A DNA stretch of 64,000 nt, from the NCBI GenBank assembly GCA_903879915.1, contig CAIRNJ010000060.1, positions 12,412 to 76,411 of the forward strand, read 5' to 3'. Positions 8,983 through 63,791 of this stretch are shown one piece after another (the first letter of the stretch is position 1; every line of letters begins with the position of its first letter). The DNA comes from an uncultured Elusimicrobia bacterium. GTDB lineage: Bacteria; Elusimicrobiota; Elusimicrobia; Elusimicrobiales; UBA9959. The position numbers and the translations under genes are program-made. The notes beneath the pieces were generated by a model. The model made no database searches and was not told where the DNA came from. It was given only the letters and a program-made list of their open reading frames with translations.

Positions 8983-9019
8983 AAGTTCAACTCCTGGTCA
9001 TATTAAACCACTTTTCGCG

Positions 9020-41464: not shown

Positions 41465-42632
41465 CTCACCCCGCCTGAAACTCGCCCTGTCGGCCGGCCT
41501 GCTGGCCTGCGCGGCGCTTATCTCCGTTAACGCGGCCGAAAAAAAAGAAGGCGGGCCCGTCAGGATAGGTTATTTCCACGGCGGCCGCACCGCGCTGCTG
41601 CTGCGGCTGTACGAGACGGACGGTTTCAGGAAGAAAGGCCTGAACGTAGAATACTACGCCAAGACCCTGCGCGGCAGCGAATACACGAAAGTCCCGGAAT
41701 CGATTGAGGAATTCAACGAGGGCGGCACCGACGACGTGGGAAAGTCGAAAGGCACGGAGCTTATAGACATGATGCTCGCGGGCAAATTCGACCTGGCGAT
41801 GGTCGGGGAATCCTCGTTCATTTTCTCAGTCTACGCCGGAAAACCTATAGTGGCCATCGCCGAACTGGGGCATGACGTGAACGGGCAGGCCGGGCACGTT
41901 TTTTTGATGCGCAAAGGCCTGAAGACCGACAAGCCCGCTGATTATTTCGGCAAGGTACTGGTCTCCAGGCGGGCCGGGCCCGGCGACGCGATCTTCCTGC
42001 GGGAGTATCTCGAGCATGCCGGCGTGAACCTGAAAACACAGGTGCTGCACCTCGCCGCACTGCCGAAGACCCCGGAGGAAAAGGAACTGCTGCCCAGGAA
42101 CAAGGTCCTCGTCGCAGAGGACGTCTTCGAGGACGATATGCGCAAAGGGGTAAGGAACGGCGTGGTGGACGGCGGATATTTTCACCTGATGGGCGTACCG
42201 AAAAAAATGAACGAGTTCAACCTCGTTCAATCCCTCGACGAGTTCGGCGACCCGGAGCTTTCGCACGCCCTGCTGGTCTGCACCAGGGAGTTCCTGAACG
42301 CCAACCGCGGCACCCTGACCGCGCTGCTGGAAGCGTATATCGAACGGATAAAATACGAGCATGGCCTCAGTTATGAAGAAAGGACGCGGCCGCAGGCCAA
42401 GGGGCTGCAGATGGCCATGGATTTCCGCGGCCTGAACTACCCGCAGTACGATCTCGTCCCCACTGTCAGCGCGGGGCTTTTATACGAGGTGGACAAATTG
42501 CTGAAAAAACACGGCTTTATCGGGAAGAAAACCGTCAAGATAGATAATTACGTGGACAACGGCCTGGTGAACGCCGCGCTGAAGAACCTTAACCTGACGG
42601 AGAAGGACGACCTCAGACCGTCGAAGTATTGA
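41454..42632 (+). CDS. ABC-type substrate-binding protein, NMT1/SsuA/TauA-like
   Basis: Signal peptide, VRIGYFHGGRTALL, and a two-lobe type-2 binding-protein layout. No cognate permease is adjacent on this strand. Confidence 0.6.
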   Translation: MENSSPRLKLALSAGLLACAALISVNAAEKKEGGPVRIGYFHGGRTALLLRLYETDGFRKKGLNVEYYAKTLRGSEYTKVPESIEEFNEGGTDDVGKSKGTELIDMMLAGKFDLAMVGESSFIFSVYAGKPIVAIAELGHDVNGQAGHVFLMRKGLKTDKPADYFGKVLVSRRAGPGDAIFLREYLEHAGVNLKTQVLHLAALPKTPEEKELLPRNKVLVAEDVFEDDMRKGVRNGVVDGGYFHLMGVPKKMNEFNLVQSLDEFGDPELSHALLVCTREFLNANRGTLTALLEAYIERIKYEHGLSYEERTRPQAKGLQMAMDFRGLNYPQYDLVPTVSAGLLYEVDKLLKKHGFIGKKTVKIDNYVDNGLVNAALKNLNLTEKDDLRPSKY

Positions 42633-42657
42633 GCCGGGACAGCAGGCTCCCCGGACA

Positions 42658-43410
42658 TCAGGCAGGCTTGCACGCCGCGAAGATAACCCACTTCCAGCTC
42701 GCGAACAGTTCGCCTTTTTTAACCTTTACTCCGGAGGCGCCCGCCGCCAGGTAGGCGCCGAAGATCTTTTTCTTCTGCCGCTCGTCCAGGTTCGGGTAGC
42801 ATTTCAGCAGGGCGGTAACGGACTCGGCGGAGAAATGCGCCAGTTCTTTTTTCAGCTTCAGCCCGGCGCGCTTTATATGCGCGCGCAGGTCCGCTCCCAG
42901 GTAAAGCTTCGACGGGTCCTTGAAGATCCCGGCCGGCTGTATCAGCCTGTAGATGCCCAGCAGGCGGGCCTGTTCCGCTTTATTGCGCGGCACGTGGTGG
43001 CTGAGCAGCAGCGTGCCGCCCGGCTTCAGCACGCGCGCGGCCTCTTTAAGAAAAACCCCGGGCTCAAGGAACTGCATGGCCTGGCGCATCACCACCGCGT
43101 CGAAAGAACCGTCGGGATACGGCAGTTTGTGCGCGTCCCCGCGCCGCAGGTGCCGGATATGCCGGGCGGCCTCTTTGAGCATGCCGGAGGAAATATCGAA
43201 GCCGTGCGTTTCCAGCCCCCGGCGTTTCAGCGCGCCGGTCAGTTCGCCGGTGCCGCAGCAGGCCTCCAGCATGCGGCCCTTCGCCGGCAGCAGGCCTTTT
43301 ATGGCCCTGCGGTGGGCCGCCAGCAGCCTGCGGTCGGTCACCCAGGAAGCGGACCTTGAGAATTCGGACGAGCGGGCGTCGAACTGCTTTTTAACATGGT
43401 TGTTTTTCAT
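42658..43410 (-). CDS. Class I SAM-dependent methyltransferase (Methyltransf_11-like)
   Basis: MLEACCGTGELTGAL (motif I) and LKPGGTLLLS. Start moved to the ATG at 43408-43410 (MKNNHVKKQFD...). Overlaps the upstream gene by 20 nt. Confidence 0.8.
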   Translation of the reverse strand: MKNNHVKKQFDARSSEFSRSASWVTDRRLLAAHRRAIKGLLPAKGRMLEACCGTGELTGALKRRGLETHGFDISSGMLKEAARHIRHLRRGDAHKLPYPDGSFDAVVMRQAMQFLEPGVFLKEAARVLKPGGTLLLSHHVPRNKAEQARLLGIYRLIQPAGIFKDPSKLYLGADLRAHIKRAGLKLKKELAHFSAESVTALLKCYPNLDERQKKKIFGAYLAAGASGVKVKKGELFASWKWVIFAACKPA

Positions 43411-44929
43411 CGGTGATAAGCGAGCCGGCACAAAGCCGGGCGTCCTCCTGCAGCACTGACTCGACTTCTTCTTCGGAAATAGGGCGGCCGGGATAGGCGT
43501 AAAGCCTTTTGTCGCGCACCAGCCCGGCCGTGCCGTAAGGCCCCGGCACATAATTGGCCTCGATCCTGCGGTAGGCGTCGCGGTAGACCTGCTCCGGCAG
43601 GCCGGACAGGTTCAGGAAATCGTCGCCGGCCAGGCCCTGTTCGCGGGCGAGCATCCCGCGCAGGTGGGCCAGTTCGTCCTGTATCGCGCCGGAAGCTACC
43701 GCGTCGGAGTAAACCCTGGTGCCGGGAATGGCCGAAAGATACTTGACCCGCGCAGGCGTGCCCGGCCCGGCGGAGAACGCCGCGGCGGCGTCCAGGGCTT
43801 CCTTCGTTTCGCCGGGCAGGCCCACCACGTAGGCCGCGCCCACGGTTATACCGGCGTCGCGGGTAAGCCGCATGGCCAGCGCGGTCTCGCTTTCGCTGAA
43901 GCCCTTGCCTGCGCCGTCCAGCGCGGCCTGGCTGAGCGTTTCCACGCCGTAAAGTATCTGGTCGCAGCCGGCGCCGGCCATGGCGGCCAGCACCTCGGCG
44001 TCCACGTTGCGCACGCGCGTCATGCACCACCATTTCACGCGCAGCTCCCTGAGCATTTCACACAGCGCCAGGGTCCTTTTTTTTGAAAAAGTAAAAGTAA
44101 GGTCGGTGAACTGGAAGAATTCCGCCTGATGCCGCTCCTTGAGCAAGGCCAGCTCGCCGCGCAGCCCGGCCACGGATTTCAGCCCCAGCCTGGGGGTGGT
44201 GCGGTAGCAGAAGGAACAGTTCTTGTGGCAGCCGCGGCCGGAGCTTACTATCACCTGCCGCAGAAAATGATTTTTCCGGCCCCACATCCGAAAATCCGGG
44301 ACCGGCAGGATGTCCAGGTTCGAAAGCTGCTTCCTCGGCGCGGTGAAGTTCAGCGCGCCTCCGGGCACGCGCAGCAGCAGGCCGGGAATGGAGGCCGCTT
44401 CGGCGGCCAGCGTGCCGCGGGTGAAAGCGTCCAGCAGCTCCAGTACGGTTATTTCCCCCTCGCCGAGCACGGCTATATCGGCGCGCGTATTGCGCAGCAC
44501 CAGCTCCGGCACGGAAGTGACCAGCGAGCCGCCCAGTATCACGGGGCGCAGCGGGTCCTGGTCCTTGGCGAGAGCGCAGATGGCCTCTATGAACGGGAAC
44601 CCGTCCTCGAAAGTACCCACTCCTACGAGGTCGGCGCCGCGTATGCCCGCGGCCGCGTACGCCAGCGGCGCCGGCTTGAACCTGGCGTCCACTATCTTTA
44701 CCCTGTACCCGGCGTTGGCCAGCACGGTGGCAATATAGGAGATGCCTTCGAAGGGCCGCTCAAGATAATAGCCCCAGCCGCGCGGCACGGTGAAAGGGCT
44801 CGGCGGGACCACAAGGGCGACCAACGGCTTGTAGTTGTCCGGCGGCAGCGGGATCCGCGCCGTGGAAGAGATCAGGTCCTCCCAGCGCCGGTATTCGCCG
44901 CCGCAGTTGGGGGTTCCGCAGAAATCCAT
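43391..44929 (-). CDS. B12-binding-domain radical SAM protein
   Basis: LVGVGTFEDG...VILGGSLVT (B12 domain) and SSGRGCHKNCSFCYR. Start moved to the ATG at 44927-44929 (MDFCGTPNCGG...) because the longer ORF runs into the ABC ATPase gene. Confidence 0.85.
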   Translation of the reverse strand: MDFCGTPNCGGEYRRWEDLISSTARIPLPPDNYKPLVALVVPPSPFTVPRGWGYYLERPFEGISYIATVLANAGYRVKIVDARFKPAPLAYAAAGIRGADLVGVGTFEDGFPFIEAICALAKDQDPLRPVILGGSLVTSVPELVLRNTRADIAVLGEGEITVLELLDAFTRGTLAAEAASIPGLLLRVPGGALNFTAPRKQLSNLDILPVPDFRMWGRKNHFLRQVIVSSGRGCHKNCSFCYRTTPRLGLKSVAGLRGELALLKERHQAEFFQFTDLTFTFSKKRTLALCEMLRELRVKWWCMTRVRNVDAEVLAAMAGAGCDQILYGVETLSQAALDGAGKGFSESETALAMRLTRDAGITVGAAYVVGLPGETKEALDAAAAFSAGPGTPARVKYLSAIPGTRVYSDAVASGAIQDELAHLRGMLAREQGLAGDDFLNLSGLPEQVYRDAYRRIEANYVPGPYGTAGLVRDKRLYAYPGRPISEEEVESVLQEDARLCAGSLITDEKQPC

Positions 44930-44940
44930 TATTTCGCCGC

Positions 44941-45792
44941 TCACGGTTCTTCCTTTTCCACGACTTTTATAACGCCCATCTCGCGCACGAAAGAAGGGCC
45001 TTTGGAGGCGGCCAGGCTTTTCTCCACTTCTTCCCTGAGGCTTTTCATCAGGCGGACCTTCAGGGCCATGAAGGCCGGATGCGCTTTGACCTCGGCGGTG
45101 CGCGGCTCCGGCAGGCGCACCTCTACCGATTCCTTCACTATCCCCGGGCGCGCGCTCATAACTATTATCCGCTGGCTCATGAAGATAGCCTCGTCGAGAT
45201 GGTGGGTTATCAGCACGAAGGTCTTGCCCAGGCCGCTCCAAAGCCGCAGGATCTCCTCCTGCAGCATTTCGCGGGTTATATTATCCAGCGCGGCGAACGG
45301 CTCGTCCATCAGCACGGCCTGGGGACCGCAGGCCAGCGCCCGTGCTATGCCCACGCGCTGCTTCATGCCGCCTGAAAGCTGGTGCGGGTATTTGTCGGCG
45401 AAGCCGTCCAGGTGCACCATGGAAATATATTTCAGCGCCTCTATCCGGCGGGCTTCGGCCGACAGGCCCCTGGCCTTCAGCGGGAACTCCACGTTGCCGG
45501 CCGCCGTCTTCCACGGGAAAAGGCCGTATTCCTGGAAGATCACGGTGCGCTCGGGCGAGGGGCCGAGCACTTCCTCCCCCTTGTAAAGCAGCGTACCGGA
45601 ATCTGGCCGCAGGAAACCGGCCATAAGATAAAGCAGGGTGGTCTTGCCGCTGCCGCTGGGCCCGATAACGCTTACGAACTCCCCTTGCCGTATCTCCAGT
45701 GACAGCCCGCCCAGCGCGCACAGCGACACGCCGCTTTTCGGGTCCTTGAAGGACTTGTACACGTTCTCGGCCTTAAAAATAGGTTGCGTCAT
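44941..45792 (-). CDS. ABC transporter ATP-binding protein (SsuB/TauB/NrtD-like)
   Basis: GPSGSGKTT (Walker A), LSGGMKQRVGIARAL (signature), and VLMDEPF (Walker B). Start at the ATG 45790-45792 overlaps the permease stop. Confidence 0.9.
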   Translation of the reverse strand: MTQPIFKAENVYKSFKDPKSGVSLCALGGLSLEIRQGEFVSVIGPSGSGKTTLLYLMAGFLRPDSGTLLYKGEEVLGPSPERTVIFQEYGLFPWKTAAGNVEFPLKARGLSAEARRIEALKYISMVHLDGFADKYPHQLSGGMKQRVGIARALACGPQAVLMDEPFAALDNITREMLQEEILRLWSGLGKTFVLITHHLDEAIFMSQRIIVMSARPGIVKESVEVRLPEPRTAEVKAHPAFMALKVRLMKSLREEVEKSLAASKGPSFVREMGVIKVVEKEEP

Positions 45793-46535
45793 TTGTCCTG
45801 CCGCCCCGGCTTCCAGGAGAAGCGGCGCTCCACGCGCACTATGGCCTCGTTCATCAGGTAGCCGGTGGCGCCTATGGTTATCATGCCGCACATGACGTTA
45901 GGAATGTTCATCATGGACCGGTTCATCTCTATCATGTACCCGAGCCCCGAGGTGGAAGCTATCAGTTCGGCCGCGATCACGCTCATCCAGGCGAAGCCCA
46001 GGCTTATACGCAGGCCGGTCACTATAAAAGGGAGGGCCGAAGGTATGGCCACATCGAACAGCAGCATTTTTCTGTCCGCGCCCAGCGTTCGCGCGGCGTT
46101 CAGGTGTATCTCCTCGATGTGGCGCACGCCGGAAAAAGTGTGAAGGAAAAGCGGAAAAAAAGCGGCTATAAAAGTTATGAAGTTGCTGGCCCCGTTGCCT
46201 TTTATCCCGAACCAGAGTATGGCCAGCGGGATCCAGGCTATGGGCGGCACCGGCCGCAGCAGTTCGATGACCGGCAGCAGATAAGCGCGGACCCCGGCGC
46301 GGGACGCGGCCAGTACCCCCAGCGGAACGGCGGCCGCGAAACCCAGCGCCAGGCCGGTCAGCACCCTCCGGAGGCTGGCCGCCAGGTATATAAAGAGTAT
46401 GCCCCCCTGCGCCGCATCCTTGAAGGCGTAAAGCACCTTGGTCGGCGGCGGCAGCAGGTAGGGGTTCAGCCAGCCCAGCAGGCTCGCGGCCTGCCAGGCC
46501 GCGGCTATCAGAATTACAGAAACGAGTCCTTTCAC
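45789..46535 (-). CDS. ABC transporter permease (SsuC/TauC-like, BPD_transp_1)
   Basis: 248 aa with about 6 TM segments and the EAA-like loop NAARTLGADRKMLLFDVAIPSALP. Confidence 0.85.
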   Translation of the reverse strand: MKGLVSVILIAAAWQAASLLGWLNPYLLPPPTKVLYAFKDAAQGGILFIYLAASLRRVLTGLALGFAAAVPLGVLAASRAGVRAYLLPVIELLRPVPPIAWIPLAILWFGIKGNGASNFITFIAAFFPLFLHTFSGVRHIEEIHLNAARTLGADRKMLLFDVAIPSALPFIVTGLRISLGFAWMSVIAAELIASTSGLGYMIEMNRSMMNIPNVMCGMITIGATGYLMNEAIVRVERRFSWKPGRQDK

Positions 46536-47545
46536 TTTTCCTTTACCGAAACCGCCGCCGGGTCGAACTTGCCGGCCAGAGCTTTTTCGCGGGCGGTCTT
46601 AGCGAAGCTCGGGTCAACGTTCTCCAGGACCGGCGACTTTTCCTTCAGCAGCCCGCTCGCGAGGTTGAAGTCGGCTATCTGCTGCAGGCGGGTCAGCAGG
46701 TCTTTCGCGGGGGCAAGGTTAATATCCTTTAATTTTTTCGCTCTGGCATAGGAGGTATTGAAAGCGGAACCTTTGTCGATTATCTCCGCCGATACCCCCA
46801 TGGTCTTGGCCAGCCAGCCGTTGGCCAGGGCGTGATTTTTCGCCATGTACAGCACGGCCTGCTGCAGCGCCGCCAGGAAGTTCACCGCGGCGGCGGGCTC
46901 GTTCTTCAGGAACTCCGCGGACACCACCGTGGTGGTAAAGAACGACGGGCTGTAGTCCAGCATGCGGGCGGCTTTCTTCTCGATAAAATCCTCTACGAAC
47001 GGGTCCCAGATAACTATCGCGTCGATGTCGCCTTTCATCAGCGCCGCGCGGCCCTCGGCCGCCGCCATGTGCACCAGCTTCACATCCTTATCCGGCGTAA
47101 GGCCGGCCTTGAGCAGCCACTGCACGGCCGGGTAATGAGCCGAAGTGCCGAACACCGTGGTCACGGTCTTGCCTTTGAGGTCCGAAACTTTATTTAGCGG
47201 CGAGCCCTCGCGCACCATTACAGCTATGCGTCCCGCCGGGCCCAGCGTGGCTATAACCTTGCACGGGAACTTGGCCGCGAGGTTCACGAAGTTGGCCTCG
47301 CTGGTCAGCGCTACGTCTATTTTCCCGGCCAGCAGGGCTTCCTGCATCTGCGAGCCGTAAAGGAACGGCGTCACCTCGGCGTCCAGCCCGTTCTTCGCCA
47401 GGATGTCCGTATTGGCCAGCACTGTCCCTACCTGCCCGTTTATCAGCGCTCCGGCGGACGGATACCCTATGCGTATGTGGTTATTCTCGGCGCCGGCGGC
47501 GGCGCAGCAGGCCGCCAGCAGAAATACCGAAAAAAAATTCTTCAT
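46532..47545 (-). CDS. ABC substrate-binding protein, NMT1/SsuA/TauA-like
   Basis: Signal peptide and IRIGYPSAGALINGQ. Coupled to the permease by a 4-nt overlap. Confidence 0.75.
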   Translation of the reverse strand: MKNFFSVFLLAACCAAAGAENNHIRIGYPSAGALINGQVGTVLANTDILAKNGLDAEVTPFLYGSQMQEALLAGKIDVALTSEANFVNLAAKFPCKVIATLGPAGRIAVMVREGSPLNKVSDLKGKTVTTVFGTSAHYPAVQWLLKAGLTPDKDVKLVHMAAAEGRAALMKGDIDAIVIWDPFVEDFIEKKAARMLDYSPSFFTTTVVSAEFLKNEPAAAVNFLAALQQAVLYMAKNHALANGWLAKTMGVSAEIIDKGSAFNTSYARAKKLKDINLAPAKDLLTRLQQIADFNLASGLLKEKSPVLENVDPSFAKTAREKALAGKFDPAAVSVKEK

Positions 47546-47576
47546 AGAAAAAATCTCCCGTTAATTCAGCCCCCGG

Positions 47577-48608
47577 CTAAAAGGTCATAGCCAGAACGGT
47601 TTCGAAGGTATTGCAGACTATGCCGCCTTTTACCCAGTATTTCCACTCGTAATTGGTCTGCAGCTTCATGTTGTCCGCGAAATTCCAGTTCACGCCTACT
47701 ACGGAAATGGCCGATTTCTTGACGGTGGAAGCGTATTTATAATCCCTGTCGCTGGATCGCTCGATGTCCGGGTCGTAGACGTCGTATTTAGCCACCGCCT
47801 GCAGCACCTTGGGCACCACGAAGAAAGCGGCCTGCGCGTACCAGCCTTCCGCGTTGGCCGGGCGGACATTGTTCAGGGAATTGGCCTTGCCGCGCACGTA
47901 TTCGCCTTTCAGGTAAGCCCGGCCCCAGGTAACAGAAAGCTCGGTGCCCAGGCGGGTGGTGGCGGTGGCGGTGGAAAACCGGGTGCCGTCGTAATACGAG
48001 GCGCCGAAGCTGATGGCCGCGGAGGGATTGAAGACGCCGCGCAGGGCCAGGCCCTTGCGGTGGTTCTTATCGGCGGCGTTCGCGCCTTCACCGTTGAACT
48101 GGCCCACCGTTATTTCCGCCAGTTTTTTCAGCTGCCAGGGCGAAGCGGTAAGCTGCAGCGAGGCGCCGATATCGCGGCCTTTCGTGTCCGGCCGCGCCGG
48201 CGTCAGCGCGTTAACAACCTGCGAGCGGTTGACCGTGTCCAGGTCGGAGTCACCCGCCAGGTGTTCCATGCTGAACGGCACTTTGAACTGGCCCGCGCGG
48301 AATTTAAAAGCGAACGCTTTAGGCAGGACGTTCTCCCGGCTGAAATCCAGGTAGGCGTCCAGCAGGGCGGGCTGCTGGCTGGCGTCCAGCTGGAAGCTGT
48401 AGGCCCAGTCGGTGTTCGGCTTGCCGGAGAAAACTATGCGGGCCAGGCGCATGGAAAAAGAGTCCGGCGTCTTGTCGCTCACTGCGCTGTACATCTCCTG
48501 CATATAAAGCTTTACTTCCGTTTTTTTCTCTTCGGCGCGCGCGCTGCCCGCCATAAATCCGTATGCCGCAACAACAACCGCCATTAGCCGAACGAACTTG
48601 CTTTCCAT
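47577..48608 (-). CDS. Anion-selective porin, phosphate-selective porin O/P family-like
   Basis: Signal peptide; FSMRLARIVFSGKPNTDWAYSFQLD (the family's typical RxRxxxxG...W.Y motif); C-terminal ...TVLAMTF. Confidence 0.6.
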   Translation of the reverse strand: MESKFVRLMAVVVAAYGFMAGSARAEEKKTEVKLYMQEMYSAVSDKTPDSFSMRLARIVFSGKPNTDWAYSFQLDASQQPALLDAYLDFSRENVLPKAFAFKFRAGQFKVPFSMEHLAGDSDLDTVNRSQVVNALTPARPDTKGRDIGASLQLTASPWQLKKLAEITVGQFNGEGANAADKNHRKGLALRGVFNPSAAISFGASYYDGTRFSTATATTRLGTELSVTWGRAYLKGEYVRGKANSLNNVRPANAEGWYAQAAFFVVPKVLQAVAKYDVYDPDIERSSDRDYKYASTVKKSAISVVGVNWNFADNMKLQTNYEWKYWVKGGIVCNTFETVLAMTF

Positions 48609-49285
48609 TATTTTCCCTTTGATCCGGCCGAAACTTTATCGTCGATGCCGCCTGACAGGGTGCCAGCACATCTTATTTTATCAAATTCCCTGAGCGCGGA
48701 CTCCTGGTCGAAGTCCTTCTTGGGAAAGAACAGTTCGATCTGCGCGAGCAGGGAATTTTTTTCGCAGTAAACGTAGCCCAGCAGCCCCCGGCGGCTTATC
48801 AGGTCCTCGGAGCCGGCCCCGTACGCCATGCTGGGAGTGGCGGCAAGGACCTTAACTTTGTTTTCACCGGGGCCGGTCCGGAGGTCCCTGGGCCGCAGCT
48901 GCGGCGGCACCTCGAATTCGGTAGTTATCATGCCGGGATAGGCCGCGCCGCCGGCATACAGCGCGTCTATACGGAGAAAACGCTCGGCCATGGTCTTTTC
49001 AGCCTGCGCGCGGCTGATATTTTTCGTCAGTTCCAGACGGAGCCGCACCGCGCCGGCGCCGGTATCCAGCGTCCGGAAGGCCGGCAGCGCGCCGCGCCAG
49101 TCCCCGCGCCGGTAATCTTTGGAAACGCTGAAAGCTCTGGTGCCGGCATACTCCAGCCCCGCCGCGGCCAGCGCGGCTTTGAAAGGGCGGGCGCCGCCTG
49201 AACCGGCGGCCGCCGGGCAGGCCGGCACCGCGGCCAGCAGGACCAGCATGACCAGCAGGAATAGTTTACGGCTCGAAGATCTCAT
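48608..49285 (-). CDS. Exported hypothetical protein (possible lipoprotein)
   Basis: LFLLVMLVLLAAVPAC signal sequence. No recognisable domain. Overlaps both neighbours. Confidence 0.5.
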   Translation of the reverse strand: MRSSSRKLFLLVMLVLLAAVPACPAAAGSGGARPFKAALAAAGLEYAGTRAFSVSKDYRRGDWRGALPAFRTLDTGAGAVRLRLELTKNISRAQAEKTMAERFLRIDALYAGGAAYPGMITTEFEVPPQLRPRDLRTGPGENKVKVLAATPSMAYGAGSEDLISRRGLLGYVYCEKNSLLAQIELFFPKKDFDQESALREFDKIRCAGTLSGGIDDKVSAGSKGK

Positions 49286-51245
49286 TTATAACTTTGCCCT
49301 GCATGTAGCCGGGGACCGGGACGCCGGTAAGCTTCAGCAGCGTAGGCAGCTGGTCGGCGTTGCTGATATTGCGCTTCAGCCTGTAGCCTTTTTTTACTCC
49401 GGGCCCCATTACTATGAAAGGCGTCCACAGCGCGGAGTTCTTTTCGGCCAGCAGCGCCTGTTTATAACCGCCTTCGCGGGCGTCGCGGAACACCGGCAGC
49501 CCAGCGGACATTTCCTCCGTCAGACCGTAACCGGGCTTCATCACCAGCAGCAGGTCCGGCACGCGGTCTTTGGGCATCCTGAGCCCGCCGGCGTCCTCCC
49601 AGTTCACAACGCGCTCTATCGGCGCCGCGGCGCCGTCCCGCAGGCCCAGCAACATTTTCTTCACCTTCCCGCGAAGGGCGTTATATTCCGGCCCGCCGCC
49701 GCGCCGCCACTGCCCGGCCAGGCCGTCGGGGCGCAGGTAAACGCCTATCATTTTAAGATGCGCCACTTTCGTTCCGGCCCAGTCTATGGCCGGCGCGCCG
49801 GTAGCCGGGTTGGTGCTGAAACTCAAAAGCCCTTCTTTCGCGAACAGATCGTTCAGCATGACGTAGCGGTTCAGCGGGGCTATACCGTGGTCGGAACTGA
49901 GCACTATCAAAGAATTACCGCCCGCGCTTTTCATCGCCTCGCCCAGCACCGCGTCCAGGCGCCGGTACATCTCTTCCAGGTCGGCCAGGGCCGCGGCCCG
50001 CTCGCCCGGGGAGGCGGCGGCGTAGCGCGAACTGTTCCTGTCCACGTAAGGCAGCCACCAGCGGCTTTCCAGCATCTGGTTGGGCGTGTAGGTGTCCTGA
50101 ATAAAAACGTCTGGCTTCAGAGTGGAATAGATGAACGGCACCAGCGCCCGGTGCCAGTCCAGCGCCATCTTCGCCTCGGAGAAGAAAGTGTTCTTTTCCT
50201 CCGGCGAATTGTTCAGCTGGGCCGGCCAGTTGTCGGGGAAATCCACCATCGGGCCCAGCGCCTTTTCCATGGCCGGCACGGCGTCGGCCGGCTCCACGGT
50301 GGTGCGATTCATGGGGTCGAACAACAGCCGGGCCTTCATGGCGCCGGAAGGCGCGAGGCGTATCAGCGAAACCTTAAGGCTGGACTCCAGCGGCTGGGTT
50401 CCCCACGCCAGGCTTACCGGGGTCCACCCGCTCCAGGAATCCGGCCGGCCGAGGTCGGCGATGGCCGACTCTTTGTCGAAAGAGAACAGCGCGCCGGAGT
50501 AATTTTCGGCCTGGTCGTCGGTGCTGTCGTAAATATAGGCGTAGACGGTGGTGCCGTAGGCGGCCAGCTCCGCCTCGAGGGGCGGAGAGTAGGAGACCGG
50601 CGAGGCCTTCCAGCCCCGCGCCGGAGCCGTTCTTACCTGGCGCGTCAGCTGCGGGCCCATGAAGAAAAGCCGCGCGGAATCCCCGGCCGGGGGGCGGGCG
50701 TCAGCCGACGCTTCGAAATTTATCGCCCAGAAATCAGAGCCCCAGGAACCCCAGCGGCCGCGTATGGTCAGCCCCGACGACATTTCCGGCGGCGTAGAGC
50801 CGGGCACCGAGACCACGGCCACGGTACGGCCCGCGTCCTCGAAAAGTTTCCAGGCCGGCGGCACTTTCTTGGCGCTGGAGGAGAAGCCCGAGATGGACGG
50901 CTTGGCCAGCCCGTAGCCTTCCAACCGCATCTGCCCGTCGGCCACGCCGTGCAGTTCGGGATAGCAGCCCGTCATCAGCGTGGCGAAGTTAACCGGGGTA
51001 TGGGAAGGATAGACCGGCATGGAATAGCCGTAGGAACCGTTCTCCATCATCCTGCGTATATTAGGATATTCCCCCTCCGCCGCCAGTTCAAAAACATCTT
51101 TTCCGCCCAGGTCCGCCCTCATCCCGTCGGGCACGAACCAGTAAAGGCCGGCGTTCTTTTCGCCGCAGTAAGCGGAGGTCCCCGCCGCCGCCAGCAGCAA
51201 CAGGGCCAGGAGCCGGACCGCCCCAGGGATTTCAGCGCGTCTCAT
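49266..51245 (-). CDS. Secreted nucleotide pyrophosphatase/phosphodiesterase-type (AP superfamily) protein
   Basis: Signal peptide; YWFVPDGMRADL; YPSHTPVNFATLMTGCYPELHG (Thr nucleophile); VLSSDHGI. Confidence 0.75.
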   Translation of the reverse strand: MRRAEIPGAVRLLALLLLAAAGTSAYCGEKNAGLYWFVPDGMRADLGGKDVFELAAEGEYPNIRRMMENGSYGYSMPVYPSHTPVNFATLMTGCYPELHGVADGQMRLEGYGLAKPSISGFSSSAKKVPPAWKLFEDAGRTVAVVSVPGSTPPEMSSGLTIRGRWGSWGSDFWAINFEASADARPPAGDSARLFFMGPQLTRQVRTAPARGWKASPVSYSPPLEAELAAYGTTVYAYIYDSTDDQAENYSGALFSFDKESAIADLGRPDSWSGWTPVSLAWGTQPLESSLKVSLIRLAPSGAMKARLLFDPMNRTTVEPADAVPAMEKALGPMVDFPDNWPAQLNNSPEEKNTFFSEAKMALDWHRALVPFIYSTLKPDVFIQDTYTPNQMLESRWWLPYVDRNSSRYAAASPGERAAALADLEEMYRRLDAVLGEAMKSAGGNSLIVLSSDHGIAPLNRYVMLNDLFAKEGLLSFSTNPATGAPAIDWAGTKVAHLKMIGVYLRPDGLAGQWRRGGGPEYNALRGKVKKMLLGLRDGAAAPIERVVNWEDAGGLRMPKDRVPDLLLVMKPGYGLTEEMSAGLPVFRDAREGGYKQALLAEKNSALWTPFIVMGPGVKKGYRLKRNISNADQLPTLLKLTGVPVPGYMQGKVINEIFEP

Positions 51246-52651
51246 GACACGGCCTCTTTTTCCCGGGTAAGCTCCCAGATCCTGTGGAAAAAGTCCCTGA
51301 GCAGGCCTTCGCCGAGCCCGGTCATGTTCACTATCTTGTCGTCGTTGTCCCCCACCCGCCGCGCGGAAAGCTCGCGCAAAAATCCTACGGTATCGGCTAT
51401 CCTGCCCGTTCTCAGCGCGTCCGCGTACAGAGCAGTGCCGGGAAAAGGCACCAGGTATTTCACCAGCGGGATAAAGTCGCCTTTGCGGATGAAGTCCAGC
51501 ATGCCTTTAAGCGAATTTTTCGTCTCGCCCGGCAGCCCGACTATGAACAGCCCCCGCGCCTGCAGGCCGGCCCCCGCCGCGGCCGCCAGCGCGGCGTCTA
51601 TCTGGGCGATGGTGGTGCCCTTGCGGCTGAGGTTCAGCACGGCCTGGTCATAGGATTCGATGCCGAACCAGACACCCTGGCACCCGGTCCGTTTTAATTT
51701 TTCCGCGAAAGCGGCGCTGACGCCCGTGACCCTGGCGAAACAATGGTATTTCACCCCGTGCCTGCGGAGTATGCCGCAGACGGCCATCGCGCGCGGCGCG
51801 TCGGCGTTGAAAGTCAGGTCGTTGAGCCAGGTATAGCCGAAGTTCGTGGTCTCTTTAAGATGCGCCACCTCGAGCTCGAACCTTTCAAGGCTCTTAACCC
51901 TTAACGCGGGGATGGTCTTGTAGCAGAAGGAGCAGGCGCAGGGGCAGCCCCTCGACGAGGAAATTATTATCTGGCCCGCTTTAACTATTTCTTCGTAGTT
52001 CGGCCAGACCGTGTAATCGGGAAAAGGCAGGTTATCCAGGTCCTGTATCTGCGGCCGGGGCGCCGTGAGTTTTACGCCGGCGGCGGTCTTCAGGGCCATG
52101 CCCTTTATGCCGGACAGGTCGTTCTGCCCGCGTTCCAGTACGGCGTCAAGGAACTCTATCAGCGTCAGCTCGGCCTCGCCCAGCACGGCGCAGTGGGCGG
52201 CGGTGCTGTCCAGCAGCAGTTCGGGCAGCGACGAGACCAGCGGCCCGCCCAGGAAGACCAGCCTTTCCGGGCGGGCCTGCTTGAGCGCTTTCGTCAGCGC
52301 CTGCAGAAAGATGAAAGAGTCGCAGTAGGTGGCGATCCCGACGATATCGGCGGCGGCCAGTTCTTTTACGGCCCGGCCGGTGTTTTCTCCGCCCGCCGGC
52401 CGGCAGTCCAGCACTTTAAGGGTATAGCCGAGCTTTTTAATTAAGGTCGCCACCGCGGTAAAGCCTTCGAAAGGTCCGCTTATCAGGAATTCCCGGCCGG
52501 GAGTAGGGAGCTGCGGAGAGGGCGGAATTACCAGCGCCACCGTTTTTCCGCGGGCCGCGCGGCCGCTCTTCCCGGCCAGGCCGGCCAGGACGCGTTCGCA
52601 GGGGTCGGCCGGGCCAGCGCAGGACAGCGTTCCATTCACATGCCGCGTCAT
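51242..52651 (-). CDS. B12-binding-domain radical SAM protein (paralogue of 43391-44929)
   Basis: IVGIATYCDS...VFLGGPLVS and SSSRGCPCACSFCYK. N-terminal VALVIPPSPQLPTPG...GPFEG matches VALVVPPSPFTVPRG...RPFEG in the paralogue. Confidence 0.85.
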   Translation of the reverse strand: MTRHVNGTLSCAGPADPCERVLAGLAGKSGRAARGKTVALVIPPSPQLPTPGREFLISGPFEGFTAVATLIKKLGYTLKVLDCRPAGGENTGRAVKELAAADIVGIATYCDSFIFLQALTKALKQARPERLVFLGGPLVSSLPELLLDSTAAHCAVLGEAELTLIEFLDAVLERGQNDLSGIKGMALKTAAGVKLTAPRPQIQDLDNLPFPDYTVWPNYEEIVKAGQIIISSSRGCPCACSFCYKTIPALRVKSLERFELEVAHLKETTNFGYTWLNDLTFNADAPRAMAVCGILRRHGVKYHCFARVTGVSAAFAEKLKRTGCQGVWFGIESYDQAVLNLSRKGTTIAQIDAALAAAAGAGLQARGLFIVGLPGETKNSLKGMLDFIRKGDFIPLVKYLVPFPGTALYADALRTGRIADTVGFLRELSARRVGDNDDKIVNMTGLGEGLLRDFFHRIWELTREKEAVS

Positions 52652-52654
52652 TTC

Positions 52655-53329
52655 TCAGTATTTAATTATCTGGTAGCCGTCGTTCAGGAAAGAAGCGATG
52701 TCGACGGGAACGGAGGGATCTTCTGAAAGCGGCAGCCCTTTCGCCTTAAGCCCGCTGTATACTCCCAGTTGAGTGGCTGACAGCGCGCATAGCGTGAACG
52801 GGATCTTCGCGGCCGTAAAATCCGCCAGAAGGCGCCAGCCGGCCTCTCCGGCGGCGCCGGAGATCCTGACCGGCTTCTCCCCCTTCCCGGCCGGCAGGGA
52901 GAACATATGCGGTCTTTCAGGCAGTATGGCGAGATTGGGGACCATGGAGGAAACGTACACGCCGTCCACCAAAGTCTTCTGACAGATCATTCCCTCTACG
53001 ACCCCGCCCAGGCATTCAGTGGAAATGAGCACGGCAGCCTCCGCCGCGCGCGACGCCCCCAGGATAGCCATAGTCCTTTCGGGTTTCAAATATGCGCCGA
53101 AGCCGTCCTTGCCCAGGAAATAGACCACGGCTTCCCCCTGAAAGACAGCCCGCACGTCCAGGCCGGCCTTCTGCAGTTCCATGCCGCGCCAAAGAGCCAT
53201 ACTGAAACCGAACCGGTCGTCCGTCCTGGACTGTACGATCAAAAGGACCTTCTTACGGCCCTCCTGGGAAAAAGCATGGGAAGAAAAAAGCGCAAGGACC
53301 GCGAAAGCGATAAATATTTTCTTAAGCAT
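52655..53329 (-). CDS. Exported DsrE/DsrF-fold-like protein (tentative)
   Basis: Signal peptide MLKKIFIAFAVLALFSSHAFS, KVLLIVQSRTDDRFGFSMAL...VRAVFQGEAVVYF, and IPFTLCALSATQLG. Start moved to the ATG at 53327-53329. The longer ORF's ARLPRF-repeat N-terminus is an antisense reading of the neighbouring repeat. Confidence 0.35.
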   Translation of the reverse strand: MLKKIFIAFAVLALFSSHAFSQEGRKKVLLIVQSRTDDRFGFSMALWRGMELQKAGLDVRAVFQGEAVVYFLGKDGFGAYLKPERTMAILGASRAAEAAVLISTECLGGVVEGMICQKTLVDGVYVSSMVPNLAILPERPHMFSLPAGKGEKPVRISGAAGEAGWRLLADFTAAKIPFTLCALSATQLGVYSGLKAKGLPLSEDPSVPVDIASFLNDGYQIIKY

Positions 53330-53346
53330 TGTCCGCCATCCTGTTT

Positions 53347-53658
53347 TTAGTATGAGCCGTGGGAACCGTGCGAGCCGTGGGAGCCGTGCGAACCGTGGGA
53401 ACCGTGGGAGCCGTGCGAGCCGTGGGAACCGTGGGAGCCGTGCGAGCCGTGGGAGCCGTGCGAGGAATGAGAGCCGTGCGAAGAATGGGAACACGCGGCT
53501 TCGGAGGATTTAACGGAGACCAGCAGCGCGGCCAGCCCCATGCCCAGGCCGATGGAGGTGCCGGCCATCATGTTTATCTTCTTTTTGGTTATCCGGCCTT
53601 CTTCGCTGACCAGGAATTTTTGAAGGCTTTTTTTAAACTCCGGAAGTTTTTCCGCCAT
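53347..53658 (-). CDS. His-Xaa-Ser repeat protein (HxsA-like): charged N-region, hydrophobic segment, then 15 x H-(G/S)-S
   Basis: MAEKLPEFKKSLQKFLVSEEGRITKKKINMMAGTSIGLGMGLAALLVSVKSSEAAC-S-(HSS,HGS,HSS,HGS x12)-Y. RBS AAGGGG lies upstream of the ATG. The gene is preceded by a 186-nt AT-rich spacer. Confidence 0.85.
   Translation of the reverse strand: MAEKLPEFKKSLQKFLVSEEGRITKKKINMMAGTSIGLGMGLAALLVSVKSSEAACSHSSHGSHSSHGSHGSHGSHGSHGSHGSHGSHGSHGSHGSHGSHGSY
53353..53490 (-). repeat. Tandem 9-nt coding repeat (15 units) encoding Ser-His-Gly/Ser
   Basis: Units gccgtggga, gccgtgcga and accgtggga alternate. Ser codons TCC/TCG/TCT/TCA and Gly codons GGC/GGT vary between units. Confidence 0.95.
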
Positions 53659-53742
53659 AACCTGCCCCTTTTACCCTGCCCGGCCGCTGCCGCTTTCCGG
53701 CTTTTTCCCCATAAAAATAGCCGGGCCTCCGGCTGAAGCCCA

Positions 53743-53784
53743 ATTATATACATATTGTATACCATTTCCCCGCGGATTCCGCAA
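53743..53784 (-). promoter_or_regulatory. Candidate sigma70-type promoter for the His-Xaa-Ser gene string
   Basis: Minus strand reads TTGCGG (53784-53779), then 17 nt, then TATACA/TACAAT, then a perfect TATAAT (53748-53743). An 11-nt palindrome GCGGAATCCGC overlaps the -35 element. This is the only sizeable spacer in about 14 kb of co-directional genes. Confidence 0.4.
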
Positions 53785-53844
53785 TGGCCCGCCCCCCGGG
53801 AAAATACGCCCGGCCGGCCGCCGCAAAGCCCGGAATAAAAAAGG

Positions 53845-54615
53845 CTACAGACCGGAGTTCAGGCAGCCGGCCGCCCGGCTCAGGCCGGAATTGAGCACCA
53901 GCCTTGCAGGAACAGCGCCGCCGGCAGGCTTTTTCAGCCCGCATATGCCGCGGTAGAGGGCGGAATTGTCGGAAAAAAGCGCGTTCCCGGAAACAAAAAG
54001 GCGCTCCTTGAGCACGCCCGCGGGGATCTCCGCCGCGGCCGCGCCGCGGCAGGGCATGCGGCAGGCGTCGTTGAACTTCCGGGTAAGATAGCAGATGCGG
54101 GAGAACGCGGAAAATTTGTACGGGTAGTGCAGGTTAAGCGCGGCTCCCGGGACCTTTGAGAACAGCCGGAACCCCTCCAGGTCGTCTATTTCAACGGCGC
54201 GCACGCCGCGGCCGAACAGCTGCTTAAAACCGGGCGAGGCGGCGAAAAATGACAGGTCGCCGGCCAGCACCCTGCCCAGGGAGATGCGCGGCGGCCGTTC
54301 TCCCCGGCGGCAAAGCCGGTCGAGCACCCCCAAATCGTTGACCACCAGCTCGCCGCGGGCTCCCCAGGATCTGACGAGCGGCACCAGCGCCATGAATTTT
54401 TCCAGCCATTTATCCGTCATCAGGGAGGACGCCAGCACTATGCGCCCGCGAAAGCCCGCGCGCAGCGCCCGGAGCCGGCCGGCGGACGGCAGCTTGACCT
54501 GGCAGAATTCATCCCCGGCGTAAACCGCCTGAAAACGGGACAAAAGGCCGAAGTCTGGATTTTCCAGTTCGCTCGCCGACAGGACTACCGCGTACTCTGT
54601 ACCGGGAGTTCTCAA
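53845..54615 (-). CDS. U32-family protein, UbiV-like (short form)
   Basis: AVYAGDEFCQVKLP near the N-terminus (compare the UbiV-type YLGE-x-VC), a TIM-like middle, and Cys cluster SRICYLTRKFNDACRMPC. Paralogue of 62996-63790. Overlaps the upstream U32 gene by 4 nt. Confidence 0.55.
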   Translation of the reverse strand: MRTPGTEYAVVLSASELENPDFGLLSRFQAVYAGDEFCQVKLPSAGRLRALRAGFRGRIVLASSLMTDKWLEKFMALVPLVRSWGARGELVVNDLGVLDRLCRRGERPPRISLGRVLAGDLSFFAASPGFKQLFGRGVRAVEIDDLEGFRLFSKVPGAALNLHYPYKFSAFSRICYLTRKFNDACRMPCRGAAAAEIPAGVLKERLFVSGNALFSDNSALYRGICGLKKPAGGAVPARLVLNSGLSRAAGCLNSGL

Positions 54616-55412: not shown

Positions 55413-55415
55413 CCG

Positions 55416-56822: not shown

Positions 56823-56850
56823 TATGATACTAAAAGCGCGGACTTTAAGG

Positions 56851-57522: not shown

Positions 57523-57636
57523 AAAGTACCGGGAAAGTAATTATACAAAATGAAAAAAACCGGCCGCCGCCGCGCCGTCAAAACAAAAAGTATTATAATG
57601 CATTAACCAGCTTTAACAACGGGGCGAAAAACTACC

Positions 57637-63790: not shown

Positions 63791-63791
63791 G

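Follow-up and report, generated by a model that had tools for sequence, protein, structure and literature searches.

The question raised by this locus is whether an eleven-gene, minus-strand string headed by a small His-Xaa-Ser repeat gene works as one precursor-first, RiPP-like cluster, as the original prediction considered. Within the window, i.e. the whole 64,000-nt stretch analysed, the string occupies positions 42658-53658, and all eleven genes were recovered there by an ORF check. On the basis of gene content, paralogy, synteny patterns and the fold of gene 2, it is considered probable, with considerable room for doubt, that two systems are joined here head to tail: a satellite Hxs effector pair and an uptake-linked operon for sulfur-ester processing. 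The features are as follows.

53754..53784, minus strand: promoter-like block (TTGCGG, 17 nt, TATACA) inside a 186-nt spacer, function predicted
53347..53658, minus strand: gene 1, HxsA4 His-Xaa-Ser repeat protein, 103 aa (NF038313)
52655..53329, minus strand: gene 2, DsrE/YchN-fold protein, 224 aa, assigned by fold match, predicted exported from hydropathy
51242..52651, minus strand: gene 3, B12-binding radical SAM protein "rSAM_a", 469 aa (PF02310 and PF04055)
49266..51245, minus strand: gene 4, exported NPP-type hydrolase of the alkaline-phosphatase superfamily, 659 aa (PF01663, 90.1 bits)
48608..49285, minus strand: gene 5, exported hypothetical protein, 225 aa, a recurrent NPP neighbour (no family match in Pfam or NCBIfam)
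47577..48608, minus strand: gene 6, phosphate-selective-type (O/P) porin, 343 aa (PF07396 Porin_O_P, 77.7 bits)
46532..47545, minus strand: gene 7, SsuA/NMT1-type substrate-binding protein, 337 aa (PF09084 NMT1 and PF12974 Phosphonate-bd)
45789..46535, minus strand: gene 8, ABC permease, 248 aa (PF00528 BPD_transp_1)
44941..45792, minus strand: gene 9, ABC ATPase, 283 aa (PF00005 ABC_tran, 106.8 bits)
43391..44929, minus strand: gene 10, B12-binding radical SAM protein "rSAM_b", 512 aa (PF02310 and PF04055)
42658..43410, minus strand: gene 11, class I SAM methyltransferase, 250 aa (PF08241 Methyltransf_11, 82.9 bits)

With each start taken as the first Met after the upstream stop, the junctions from gene 1 to gene 11 measure 17, 3, -4, -20, -1, 31, -4, -4, 11 and -20 nt. 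The tight packing originally described, with its gene order, six overlaps of 1-20 nt and spacers of at most 31 nt, was thus reproduced, and the family labels given to the genes agree with the profile matches, that of gene 2 as DsrE-like being borne out by its fold. The string is probably one transcription unit in the source genome, and co-transcription of genes 2 and 3 is likely there because their junction is only 3 nt. This junction is spanned by Logan contigs from four runs of a single study, one of which may be the source; every one of these contigs breaks within the HGS repeat. Export signals had been assigned to six products, and hydropathy analysis found N-terminal hydrophobic segments compatible with export in genes 2, 4, 5, 6 and 7; in gene 1 the hydrophobic segment, by the same measure, is internal and follows about 30 charged residues.

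The spacer ahead of gene 1 (53659-53844) has the 186 nt first described and contains the promoter-like block. Its supposed AT-richness, however, is confined to a core of about 36 nt (39% GC), since the GC content of the whole spacer (58.6%) is near that of the string (62.0%). No sigma-70-like site was detected in the 186 nt at the threshold of a consensus scan, which also placed a terminator-like hairpin at 53743-53721, 3' of the block. Comparison of the window, G401 (L085) and the metagenome contig L087 showed the block to be kept in all three while its flanks diverge. The leader folds no better than shuffled sequences (z -0.69), and an Rfam search of it gave no match.

Gene 1 scored 76.6 bits against the NCBIfam model NF038313, "His-Xaa-Ser repeat protein HxsA4" (cut-off 55). 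The model names the protein only, and a literature search found no paper using the names HxsA4, HxsA3 or HxsA2. The protein consists of a charged N-region, a hydrophobic segment and C-S-(HSS, HGS, HSS, HGS x12)-Y, an array of 15 H-x-S units without interruption. The source genome (G000) carries three HxsA4 genes, gene 1 and both paralogues exceeding the curated cut-off. One paralogue (G000:C60:78848-79159) is identical to gene 1 at 99 of 102 residues (97%) and belongs to a second locus, locus B, 13 kb upstream, in which the order is HxsD-HxsB-HxsA4-DsrE-like-HxsC-like radical SAM; HxsD scores 49.0 bits (cut-off 50) and HxsB 454.9 (cut-off 370). Homology between the two loci covers exactly the two-gene unit (window 53676-52680). 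The HxsA4 copies differ by a dS of 0.67 and a dN of 0.015 over codons 1-58, and gene 2 is 52% identical to its own paralogue (dN 0.38), a fast-evolving partner of HxsA4. The retention of 97% identity in HxsA4 despite such a dS, with the partner at 52%, fits two substrates tied to one maturase set. No HxsB match lies within the window, and the three above cut-off in the genome are located at C60:79268-80659 and on C13. Genome-wide, even the best HxsC score stays below the family cut-off (159.1 vs 267.9), which counts against the two-system reading.

Genes 1 and 2 would accordingly represent a satellite copy of the effector end of an Hxs system, comprising HxsA4 and its exported DsrE-fold partner. 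Maturation of HxsA4 would take place in trans, within the cytoplasm, and depend on the HxsD, HxsB and HxsC-like genes 13 kb upstream. Export or anchoring would follow, placing the His-Gly-Ser array of HxsA4 in the periplasm. In the described HXS anti-phage system, HxsD-HxsB-HxsC-HxsA, the proteobacterial HxsA is modified before export, and 99.7% of HXS systems were assigned to Pseudomonadota, according to Li et al. (Nat Commun 2026, PMC13128918). The source genome likewise combines a His-Xaa-Ser repeat protein bearing an export segment near its N-terminus with an HxsB maturase above cut-off and an HxsD-like protein, and by analogy HxsA4 may act as a periplasmic anti-phage effector. Radical SAM maturation in the cytoplasm followed by export also resolves the compartment puzzle of the original prediction, in which exported products accompany cytoplasmic radical SAM enzymes. 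Modification of the repeat protein before export is therefore plausible in the light of the HxsA precedent, but the B12 radical SAM genes on either side are improbable candidates for the maturases. Cognate HxsD/HxsB/HxsC-like genes stand beside the 97% paralogue. In contrast to the HxsA characterised in PMC13128918, HxsA4 is a 103-aa protein whose 15 units are mostly H-G-S. It is also devoid of the peptidoglycan-binding domain of that HxsA, a lack that weighs against the proposed reading. Compared with the system described there, the order is D-B-A4-DsrE-like-C-like instead of D-B-C-A, the HxsC-like gene falls far under the HxsC cut-off, an exported DsrE-fold partner is added, the HxsA4 copy of the string is without an adjacent maturase, and the host is an Elusimicrobiota member.

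The partner, gene 2, matched no Pfam or NCBIfam family, Pfam DsrE included. Among 48,161 PDB representatives compared with its AF2 model (pLDDT 82.3) by VIA-align, the nine best are all DsrE/DsrF/YchN/TusBCD proteins (Z 10.4-13.0), the next standing at Z 6.0. Gene 2 shares with this sulfur-relay group the predicted fold and a Cys in the region of position 181; it departs from it in its predicted export, an insertion of about 80 residues and a Cys that is not invariant across the family. The family is small, with 26 representatives (E <= 0.001) among 1.84 billion and presence in 4 of 401 phylum genomes. A close homologue lies directly 3' of an HxsA4 gene in all seven loci concerned (the window, locus B, L085, L087, L088, L089 and L090), and in four of them (locus B, L088, L089 and L090) an HxsC-like radical SAM gene follows and the operon of genes 3-11 is absent.

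DsrE-fold proteins are sulfur carriers, and HxsA4 with its partner could have been recruited, without any modification by the B12 enzymes, to serve periplasmic uptake, for example by metal binding or sulfur carrying for the NPP, porin or binding protein. The predicted export of both proteins, the sulfur-carrier fold with a retained Cys at 181 and the sulfur-ester flavour of the operon are in keeping with such recruitment, as is L091, where a distant DsrE-like homologue stands first, before two B12 radical SAM genes, and no HxS peptide lies in the vicinity, an arrangement that also tells against two joined systems. Recruitment is nonetheless judged unlikely, given that gene 2 homologues follow HxsA4 even where the operon is missing, that the Cys varies within the family and that in other genomes the operon works without genes 1-2.

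The wider distribution of both parts argues for their separate conservation. HxsA4 was found in 97 of 401 phylum genomes, and an HxsB-like gene adjoins it in 28 of the 30 best phylum loci and in all 17 same-genus loci; these 47 loci hold no homologue of the NPP, gene 5, porin, binding protein, permease or ATPase. Conversely, genes 3-11 or subsets of them occur without genes 1-2 in six other Elusimicrobia loci: L072 preserves the order of genes 3, 4, 5, 7, 8, 9, 10 and 11, with identities of 66-89%, L068 has 3-4-5-10-11, L070 and L076 have 3-6-7-8-9-10-11, L069 has 3-6-7-8 up to the contig end, and L071 has 3-4. Conservation of gene order with the repeat gene at its head thus largely fails in L072, L070, L076, L069 and L068, and a single precursor-first cluster is unlikely, the operon recurring without the repeat gene and the paralogue sitting in its own Hxs cassette. 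Genes 3-11 would be an operon older than the junction with the Hxs pair, with gene 3 first. An AT-rich, TATAAT-like box lies 7-20 nt before gene 3 in 7 of 7 Elusimicrobia orthologues with upstream sequence, among them the closest relative, L079, and also L087, in which genes 1-2 stand ahead of gene 3.

Scanning 38 loci (L054-L091) for at least four HxS units matched only L071 and the Hxs loci L083-L090. In L071 a C-type HxsA4 gene lies on the same strand 3.8 kb upstream of rSAM_a, and L087 repeats the order HxsA4-DsrE-like-rSAM_a-NPP; both observations count against two separate systems. The HxsA4-first arrangement is shared only by one close relative, L087, and probably by a second, G401, where two contigs end at the junction; both retain a spacer ahead of gene 3. 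In G172, G210, G323 and G356, genomes of the same family with a gene 5 homologue, HxsA4 is on another contig among the matches listed.

These data also bear on the idea of one expanded Hxs maturation cluster, in which the B12 radical SAM enzymes and methyltransferase would further modify HxsA4 before export (e.g. by C-methylation), after or instead of HxsB/HxsC, the transport genes being passengers. Such a cluster would account for HxsA4 standing first in a tightly packed string, for the same head in L087, for weak B12 radical SAM matches downstream of same-genus Hxs loci and for the frequency of B12 radical SAM genes near HxsA4, 10 of the 23 B12-binding-domain matches in the genome sitting on the two HxsA4-carrying contigs C60 and C13, a distribution unfavourable to the two-system reading. 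It is regarded as unlikely, because rSAM_a, rSAM_b and methyltransferase orthologues stand without an HxS-repeat ORF in the fetched flanks of 14 of 15 genome loci, the operon stands without genes 1-2 in the six Elusimicrobia loci, the box before gene 3 is retained in L087 and L079, and the HxsA4 copies are 97% identical though only one adjoins B12 enzymes.

Under the preferred reading of two joined systems, the two B12 radical SAM genes and the methyltransferase bracket interchangeable modules, one of the exported NPP-type esterase with the hypothetical protein and the other of the porin with an SsuABC-like importer. NCBIfam matches of gene 3 are all far under cut-off (best ApyD, 138 vs 750); its orthologues, at 56-92% identity, were found in 15 genome loci and L087. 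Those of rSAM_b show 71-95% identity in Elusimicrobia loci and 39-42% in the Omnitrophota/Planctomycetales loci L074, L075 and L078, and gene 11, overlapping gene 10 by 20 nt, is always 3' of rSAM_b in the Elusimicrobia orthologues. Gene 4 has weak N-terminal similarity to solved NPPs, and its homologue adjoins that of gene 5 in L054-L066. Gene 5 homologues are present in 15 of 401 phylum genomes (G000 included) and in 0 of 20 same-genus genomes, and its atlas look-alikes are unnamed clusters only. The gene 6 porin occurs in L069, L070, L076 and L079 and is missing from L068 and L072. Aliphatic sulfonate importers (SsuABC/TauABC) provide the best or near-best NCBIfam neighbours of genes 7-9, all under curated cut-offs: TIGR01728 for gene 7 (147.2 bits, cut-off 163.5), which also matches phosphonate-binding PF12974, SaoP, TauC and SsuC for gene 8, and SaoA and TauB-like models for gene 9. 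The predicted role of genes 3-11 is the import and conversion of an anionic compound of the sulfur-ester, or phosphorus-ester, class.

Methylation of protein residues by B12 radical SAM enzymes has precedent, and a weak match to TIGR04014 (83.8 bits) was obtained. The two B12 enzymes of the string might act on the exported hydrolases of the alkaline-phosphatase superfamily (the NPP and the sulfatase-fold paralogues nearby) and mature them ahead of export, as anaerobic sulfatase maturases do with sulfatases. In 8 of 15 genome loci (L068, L071, L072, L073, L078, L079, L082 and the window's counterpart), one of the next two genes after rSAM_a does encode an NPP or sulfatase-fold protein. The proposal is nevertheless very improbable: a porin and not a hydrolase follows rSAM_a in L069, L070 and L076, L074, L075, L077, L080 and L081 have no hydrolase at that place, and the family scores are all far under cut-offs.

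The enzyme core of the operon would be of the kind found in the B12 radical SAM, methyltransferase and sulfatase-fold part of the nucleocidin and ascamycin sulfamylation set. Among eight Omnitrophota, Planctomycetales or unplaced loci, six (L074, L075, L077, L078, L080 and L081) have an MT-rSAM-rSAM-MT core or a contig-cut part of it, and L073 and L082 have rSAM_a-MT followed by a sulfatase. Pfam matches in L074, the one locus so analysed, revealed two sulfotransferase-type genes, an ADI/amidinotransferase-like gene and a cytidylyltransferase-APS-kinase fusion, and look-alike N-termini were judged by eye at corresponding places in L075, L078 and L081. Near the core, a sulfatase is present in L073 and L082, an arylsulfotransferase in L078 and TauE in L082. 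The domain list of this neighbourhood matches that of the ascamycin genes acmB, G, H, J, K, L, N and O (PMC4257720) and that of the genes which nucleocidin producers require for sulfamylation (PMC10946740). The likeness to the acmB, G-O and nucG, I, J, K, L, N, O, P, Q sets, as given in those papers, is one of domain content and not of aligned sequences: a B12 radical SAM protein with a second Fe-S/radical SAM protein, a UbiE-like methyltransferase of about 250 aa with a sulfatase-fold protein and, beside gene 3 orthologues of other phyla, sulfotransferase, weak-sulfotransferase (NucO-like), amidinotransferase-like and APS-kinase genes. The source genome gave no Sulfotransfer_3, APS-kinase, ADI or NucO-like match, which counts against the proposed reading and makes a full sulfamate-type route impossible in it. 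Unlike the ascamycin and nucleocidin sets as described in those papers, the source-genome version is tied to a porin, an ABC importer and an exported NPP.

The window lies at G000:C60:12412-76411 (C60 being a contig of the source Elusimicrobia genome, G000); the DNA runs that hold its stretch are lake-water metagenomes, no RNA run being among those listed for window 44000-53900, and the window's nearest named relatives are Elusimicrobia MAGs, locus L079 coming from a Lake Pavin MAG. All eleven open reading frames of the predicted string were confirmed on the minus strand, from window position 53658 to 42658, with junctions from gene 1 to gene 11 of 17, 3, -4, -20, -1, 31, -4, -4, 11 and -20 nt (range -20 to 31 nt), and it is from this gene spacing that an operon structure is proposed. 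The products were assigned as follows.

Gene 1, minus strand: HxsA4 repeat protein (NF038313, profile positions 1-93; 76.6 bits, cut-off 55)
Genes 2 and 5, minus strand: DsrE-like protein and hypothetical protein, both without family match in Pfam and NCBIfam
Genes 3 and 10, minus strand: B12-binding and radical SAM proteins, rSAM_a and rSAM_b (Pfam)
Gene 4, minus strand: NPP (Pfam/NCBIfam)
Gene 6, minus strand: porin O/P (Pfam/NCBIfam)
Genes 7-9, minus strand: SsuA/NMT1-like ABC importer, i.e. binding protein, permease and ATPase (Pfam/NCBIfam)
Gene 11, minus strand: class I methyltransferase, MT (Pfam/NCBIfam)

The string had been likened to a precursor-first RiPP operon, and this single-operon reading finds partial support. 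We consider it rather probable that a satellite Hxs effector pair (genes 1 and 2) became joined to a B12 radical SAM operon of sulfamate type that is linked to uptake.

The distribution of HxsA4 was followed in 401 evenly drawn genomes of the phylum, 97 of which gave a match and 79 a match over the cut-off. Among the best 30 of these loci (about 3.3 kb each), an HxsB-like match was observed in 28 and none to genes 2 or 4-9. In the 17 same-genus HxsA4 loci (up to 20 kb), an HxsB-like gene was always present, a DsrE-like gene occurred once (L052), B12 radical SAM matches were at most 34% identical, and homologues of NPP, gene 5, porin, binding protein, permease and ATPase were absent. Gene 5 homologues were encountered in 15 of the 401 phylum genomes, including G000, and in none of 20 same-genus genomes; its look-alikes in the Atlas are unnamed clusters. 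A scan for gene 3 over one genome per prokaryote species yielded 15 loci; among these, L068 is the contig of L055 and L070 that of L058.

Gene content of the loci retrieved with gene 3 (numbers are genes of the string)
L079, closest relative (88-98% identity): all of genes 3-11, contig beginning 54 nt before gene 3
L072: 3-4-5-7-8-9-10-11
L070 and L076: 3-6-7-8-9-10-11
L069: 3-6-7-8, then contig end
L068: 3-4-5-10-11
L071: 3-4
L074, L075, L077, L078, L080 and L081: MT-rSAM_b-like-rSAM_a-MT core, whole or truncated by the contig end
L073 and L082: rSAM_a-MT, then sulfatase

Eight of these loci (L073-L075, L077, L078 and L080-L082) belong to Omnitrophota, Planctomycetales or unplaced genomes, and in six Elusimicrobia loci the operon is retained while genes 1 and 2 are missing. 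When 38 loci (L054-L091) were scanned for at least four HxS units, matches were confined to L071 and the Hxs loci L083-L090; the HxsA4 of L071 is of C type and lies 3.8 kb upstream on the same strand, with two opposite-strand genes between. The conservation of precursor and proposed maturases (the flanking B12 radical SAMs) that a precursor-first RiPP operon would show was not observed, 14 of the 15 rSAM_a loci being devoid of an HxS-repeat ORF in the fetched flanks and the operon being absent from all 47 HxsA4 loci examined. It follows from the gene maps and the HxS-unit scan that the conserved bracket consists of genes 3 and 10-11 and that genes 1 and 2 stand outside that unit. The NPP-gene 5 and porin-ABC modules are inserted into this bracket in differing combinations.

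Side features were noticed in two of these loci. The rSAM_b orthologue of L079 (7770-9301) gave its match in two overlapping pieces, 7770-8618 and 8600-9301, maybe by frameshift or assembly error. In L058/L070 (G172:C22; L070 5519-8167), sulfatase-fold genes occur as split N- and C-terminal halves, which may be decaying paralogues, and a gene 5 fragment lies between the NPP-gene 5 pair and rSAM_a.

Gene 1 carries a hydrophobic export/anchor segment and, in Pfam, a low-complexity Collagen match only. The genome holds three HxsA4 genes, that of the string (copy A) and those of two further loci.

G000:C60:77162-81292 (L005), on the strand of gene 1 and 13 kb upstream of it, not in the window: copy B cassette, HxsD-HxsB-HxsA4-DsrE-like-HxsC-like radical SAM
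G000:C13:51283-56060 (L006 5283-10060): copy C locus, HxsD-HxsB-HxsD, Cys-rich exported protein (~340 aa), C-type HxsA4 (96 aa), SPASM radical SAM

The copy B cassette scored 49.0 bits for HxsD (TIGR03976, cut-off 50), 454.9 for HxsB (TIGR03978, cut-off 370) and 66.8 for the HxsC-like gene (TIGR03977, cut-off 267.9), and HxsD at the third locus scored 40.9 and 30.0 bits. HxsB had no match in the window and exceeded its cut-off three times in the genome, at C60:79268-80659 (13 kb upstream) and twice on C13; an HxsB beside HxsA thus occurs in the genome and is absent from the string. No HxsC in the genome reached the cut-off (best 159.1 bits), the HxsC-like gene beside the paralogous HxsA4 giving 64.3-66.8 bits. 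Two more HxsB-type genes lie on C13, at 25215-26600 (over the cut-off) and 39932-41290 (304 bits), and an HxsC-like gene comes after each of them. The copy B cassette is followed by a U32 pair ending at window 62996-64000, and its orthologues are L088/L052 (genome G388), L089 and L090. PADLOC v2.0.0, whose library is older than the HXS paper, returned nothing but generic radical SAM/methyltransferase matches for the nine proteins searched.

Among the eight papers mentioning His-Xaa-Ser in the literature searched, the function of the system is treated only by the study of the proteobacterial anti-phage system HXS and its preprint. In the available text of that study, N-terminal processing of HxsA depends on HxsB, HxsC and HxsD, and processed HxsA bears a +8 Da modification, is periplasmic and is needed for phage DNA entry to be blocked; the genes usually run D-B-C-A, and Pseudomonadota account for 99.7% of the systems (PMC13128918). 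The earlier puzzle of exported products beside cytoplasmic radical SAM enzymes is answered in principle by HXS (available text of PMC13128918), and by analogy the same could extend to HxsA4. The names HxsA4, HxsA3 and HxsA2 were absent from the literature searched, in which no paper dealt with HxsA or HxsB together with Elusimicrobia either.

DNA homology between copies A and B covers exactly the two-gene unit, window 53676-52680. The HxsA4 proteins are identical at 99 of 102 positions with dS of 0.67 and dN of 0.015 (58 non-repeat codons), i.e. extreme purifying selection on the satellite copies (dN/dS ~0.02), while their DsrE-like partners are 52% identical (dS 1.1, dN 0.38). Such identity despite diverged synonymous sites implies that leader and core are very strongly constrained in both copies, and we read both as probably serving the same maturases. 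A recent tandem duplication of genes 1 and 2 is ruled out by the dS values of 0.67-1.1. An assembly chimera across the repeat was judged unlikely, since the independent assemblies of close relative G401 (L085) and metagenome contig L087 display the same spacer-HxsA4-DsrE-like continuity and the DsrE-like protein of G401 is 54.5% identical to the window copy versus 48.2% to the paralogue, the G388 gene being left out of the comparison; short-read contigs, however, are unable to span the HGS repeat.

The AlphaFold2 model of gene 2 (27-row alignment, pLDDT 82.3) matched nine DsrE/DsrF/YchN/TusBCD structures at Z 10.4-13.0, the next chain being at 6.0, and the top Foldseek match was the DsrE protein 3pnx_A (E 0.012). 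The predicted structure thereby has the DsrE/YchN fold; the Pfam DsrE signature PF02635 was not found in gene 2. The family is rare, with 26 representatives (E <= 0.001) among 1.84 billion proteins, 3 matches in a word-indexed search and presence in 4 of 401 phylum genomes. Its members share a signal peptide and conserved N- and C-terminal halves around a variable middle insertion. At L091 6001-9430, a distant member (32% identity) is followed by two B12 radical SAM genes and adjoins a divergent Rex-like regulator gene, with no HxS-repeat ORF within 6 kb.

Among the close relatives, L087 comprises HxsA4 (97%), DsrE-like (63%), a 68-nt spacer, rSAM_a (92%) and NPP (90%), preceded by a divergent gene, and L089, a second contig of the same metagenome, holds the locus B orthologue. 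The G401 contig C127, syntenic with the window, reads HxsD-HxsB-HxsC-like-U32-U32 ... HxsA4 (92%)-DsrE-like (55%) and ends 96 nt further on; the first 54 nt of the G401 contig with genes 3-11 are AT-rich and non-coding, and no overlap between the two contig ends was found. From these gene orders, the HxsA4-first arrangement is common to one, probably two, close relatives.

The spacer before gene 1, described earlier as AT-rich, has the predicted length of 186 nt, but AT-richness applies to a 36-nt core only, the whole being 58.6% GC. A TTGCGG-17 nt-TATACA block 5' of HxsA4, kept in the window, G401 and L087, is a candidate promoter. A terminator-like hairpin with T-run stands between this block and the HxsA4 start (window 53743-53712), one of similar kind being present in L087; it could be the end of the upstream unit or a leader attenuation element. 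The Rfam scan of window 42000-58000 gave no match of note, and the leader folded no better than shuffles. An AT-rich TATAAT-like box precedes gene 3 in each of the seven Elusimicrobia orthologues that have sequence upstream, L087 and G401 among them, and in relatives it sits in a 54-68 nt spacer directly before gene 3 (L079 1-54; L087 1872-1938). In the window, the gene 2 stop is 3 nt from the gene 3 start, with a GATAAT-like sequence within the last codons of gene 2 (52652-52680), and this 3-nt junction looks derived.

Genes 3 and 10 are class B (cobalamin) radical SAM proteins (PF02310 and PF04055 over cut-off) with the CxxxCxxC motifs CPCACSFC and CHKNCSFC; every NCBIfam subfamily match was far under its cut-off, and the PDB sequences matched were distant (AprD4 59.9 bits, CysS 45.2 bits). 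The importer likewise missed the SsuABC cut-offs (TIGR01728 147.2 versus 163.5; SsuC 134.3 versus 347; ATPase PRK11247 146.8 versus 395).

Gene 3 orthologues in non-Elusimicrobia loci are 56-60% identical. In Pfam, the Planctomycetales locus L074 encodes a sulfotransferase, an ADI/amidinotransferase-like protein, a cytidylyltransferase-APS-kinase fusion and two methyltransferases, besides a protein of 468 aa in which residues 252-289 match Sulfotransfer_3 weakly; by eye, L075, L078 and L081 have look-alike N-termini at the L074 positions, and additions are an arylsulfotransferase in L078, TauE in L082 and sulfatase in L073 and L082. Table 1 of the ascamycin paper lists acmB (APS kinase), acmG (sulfatase), acmH (radical SAM/B12), acmJ (Fe-S oxidoreductase), acmK (sulfotransferase), acmL (UbiE-like methyltransferase, 250 aa), acmN (amidinotransferase) and acmO (hypothetical) (PMC4257720). 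For nucleocidin, the knock-outs in the available text indicate that sulfamylation needs nucG, I, J, K, L, N, O, P and Q plus PAPS genes, and NucO is described with a weak Sulfotransfer_3 region only (PMC10946740). Compared solely by their domains, the neighbourhoods in other phyla match these Nuc/Acm sets as given in both sources (PMC4257720, PMC10946740), and the string, again by domain content only, unites a B12 radical SAM, a SAM methyltransferase and a sulfatase-fold protein as the ascamycin table does (PMC4257720).

Sulfotransferase, amidinotransferase and APS-kinase parts adjoin gene 3 orthologues in other phyla; the window's genome, with a marker-gene completeness of 99%, gave no PF13469, PF01583, PF02274 or L074 NucO-like match for the sulfotransferases (K, O), APS kinase and amidinotransferase (N). 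The absence of Sulfotransfer_3, APS kinase, ADI and NucO-like proteins means that this genome cannot run the full sulfamylation route. Taken with the presence of a porin, an SsuA-like importer and an exported NPP, the missing parts point tentatively to genes 3-11 taking up and transforming an external anionic sulfur-ester (or phosphorus-ester) compound. The string would add a variant of the B12 radical SAM/methyltransferase/sulfatase-fold core of sulfamate biosynthesis that is linked to uptake and independent of PAPS, and with it a second biological setting for studying these enzymes.

New points are the proposed fusion, the partner with the DsrE fold and the extreme constraint under which the HxsA4 copies stand. 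The data document an Elusimicrobia Hxs form outside the only experimental paper: its HxsA4 effector is short and occurs in satellite copies, and its exported DsrE-fold partner is rare and fast-evolving. Tight packing (3-nt junctions and overlaps) alone can be a misleading guide to function, the repeat gene heading the string probably being an add-on to an older operon. It is quite improbable, in our estimate, that the sulfur-ester operon has functionally captured the Hxs pair, either by second-tier modification of HxsA4 by the B12 radical SAMs and methyltransferase or by an HxsA4-DsrE periplasmic sulfur/metal shuttle for NPP, porin and ABC importer; if true, it would tie a phage-defence-type peptide system to nutrient chemistry.

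By eye, possible lipoprotein signals end the signal segments of the binding protein (LAAC; window 46532-47545) and gene 5 (VPAC; 48608-49285). Upstream of the string, a third B12 radical SAM and two genes of the U32 family lie on the same strand, and of the 23 B12-binding-domain matches in the genome three are on C60 and seven on C13; the island around the string is rich in radical SAM genes. Many such genes, some with B12 domains, adjoin group VI nitrogenase-like genes in the available text of an Elusimicrobia preprint (10.1101/765248), and genes of this group also occur within the window. The block methyltransferase (223 aa)-B12 radical SAM_c-U32-U32 at window 53845-57522 is missing from the syntenic contig of G401, where an 86-nt methyltransferase remnant (L085 11659-11744) is all that is left of it.
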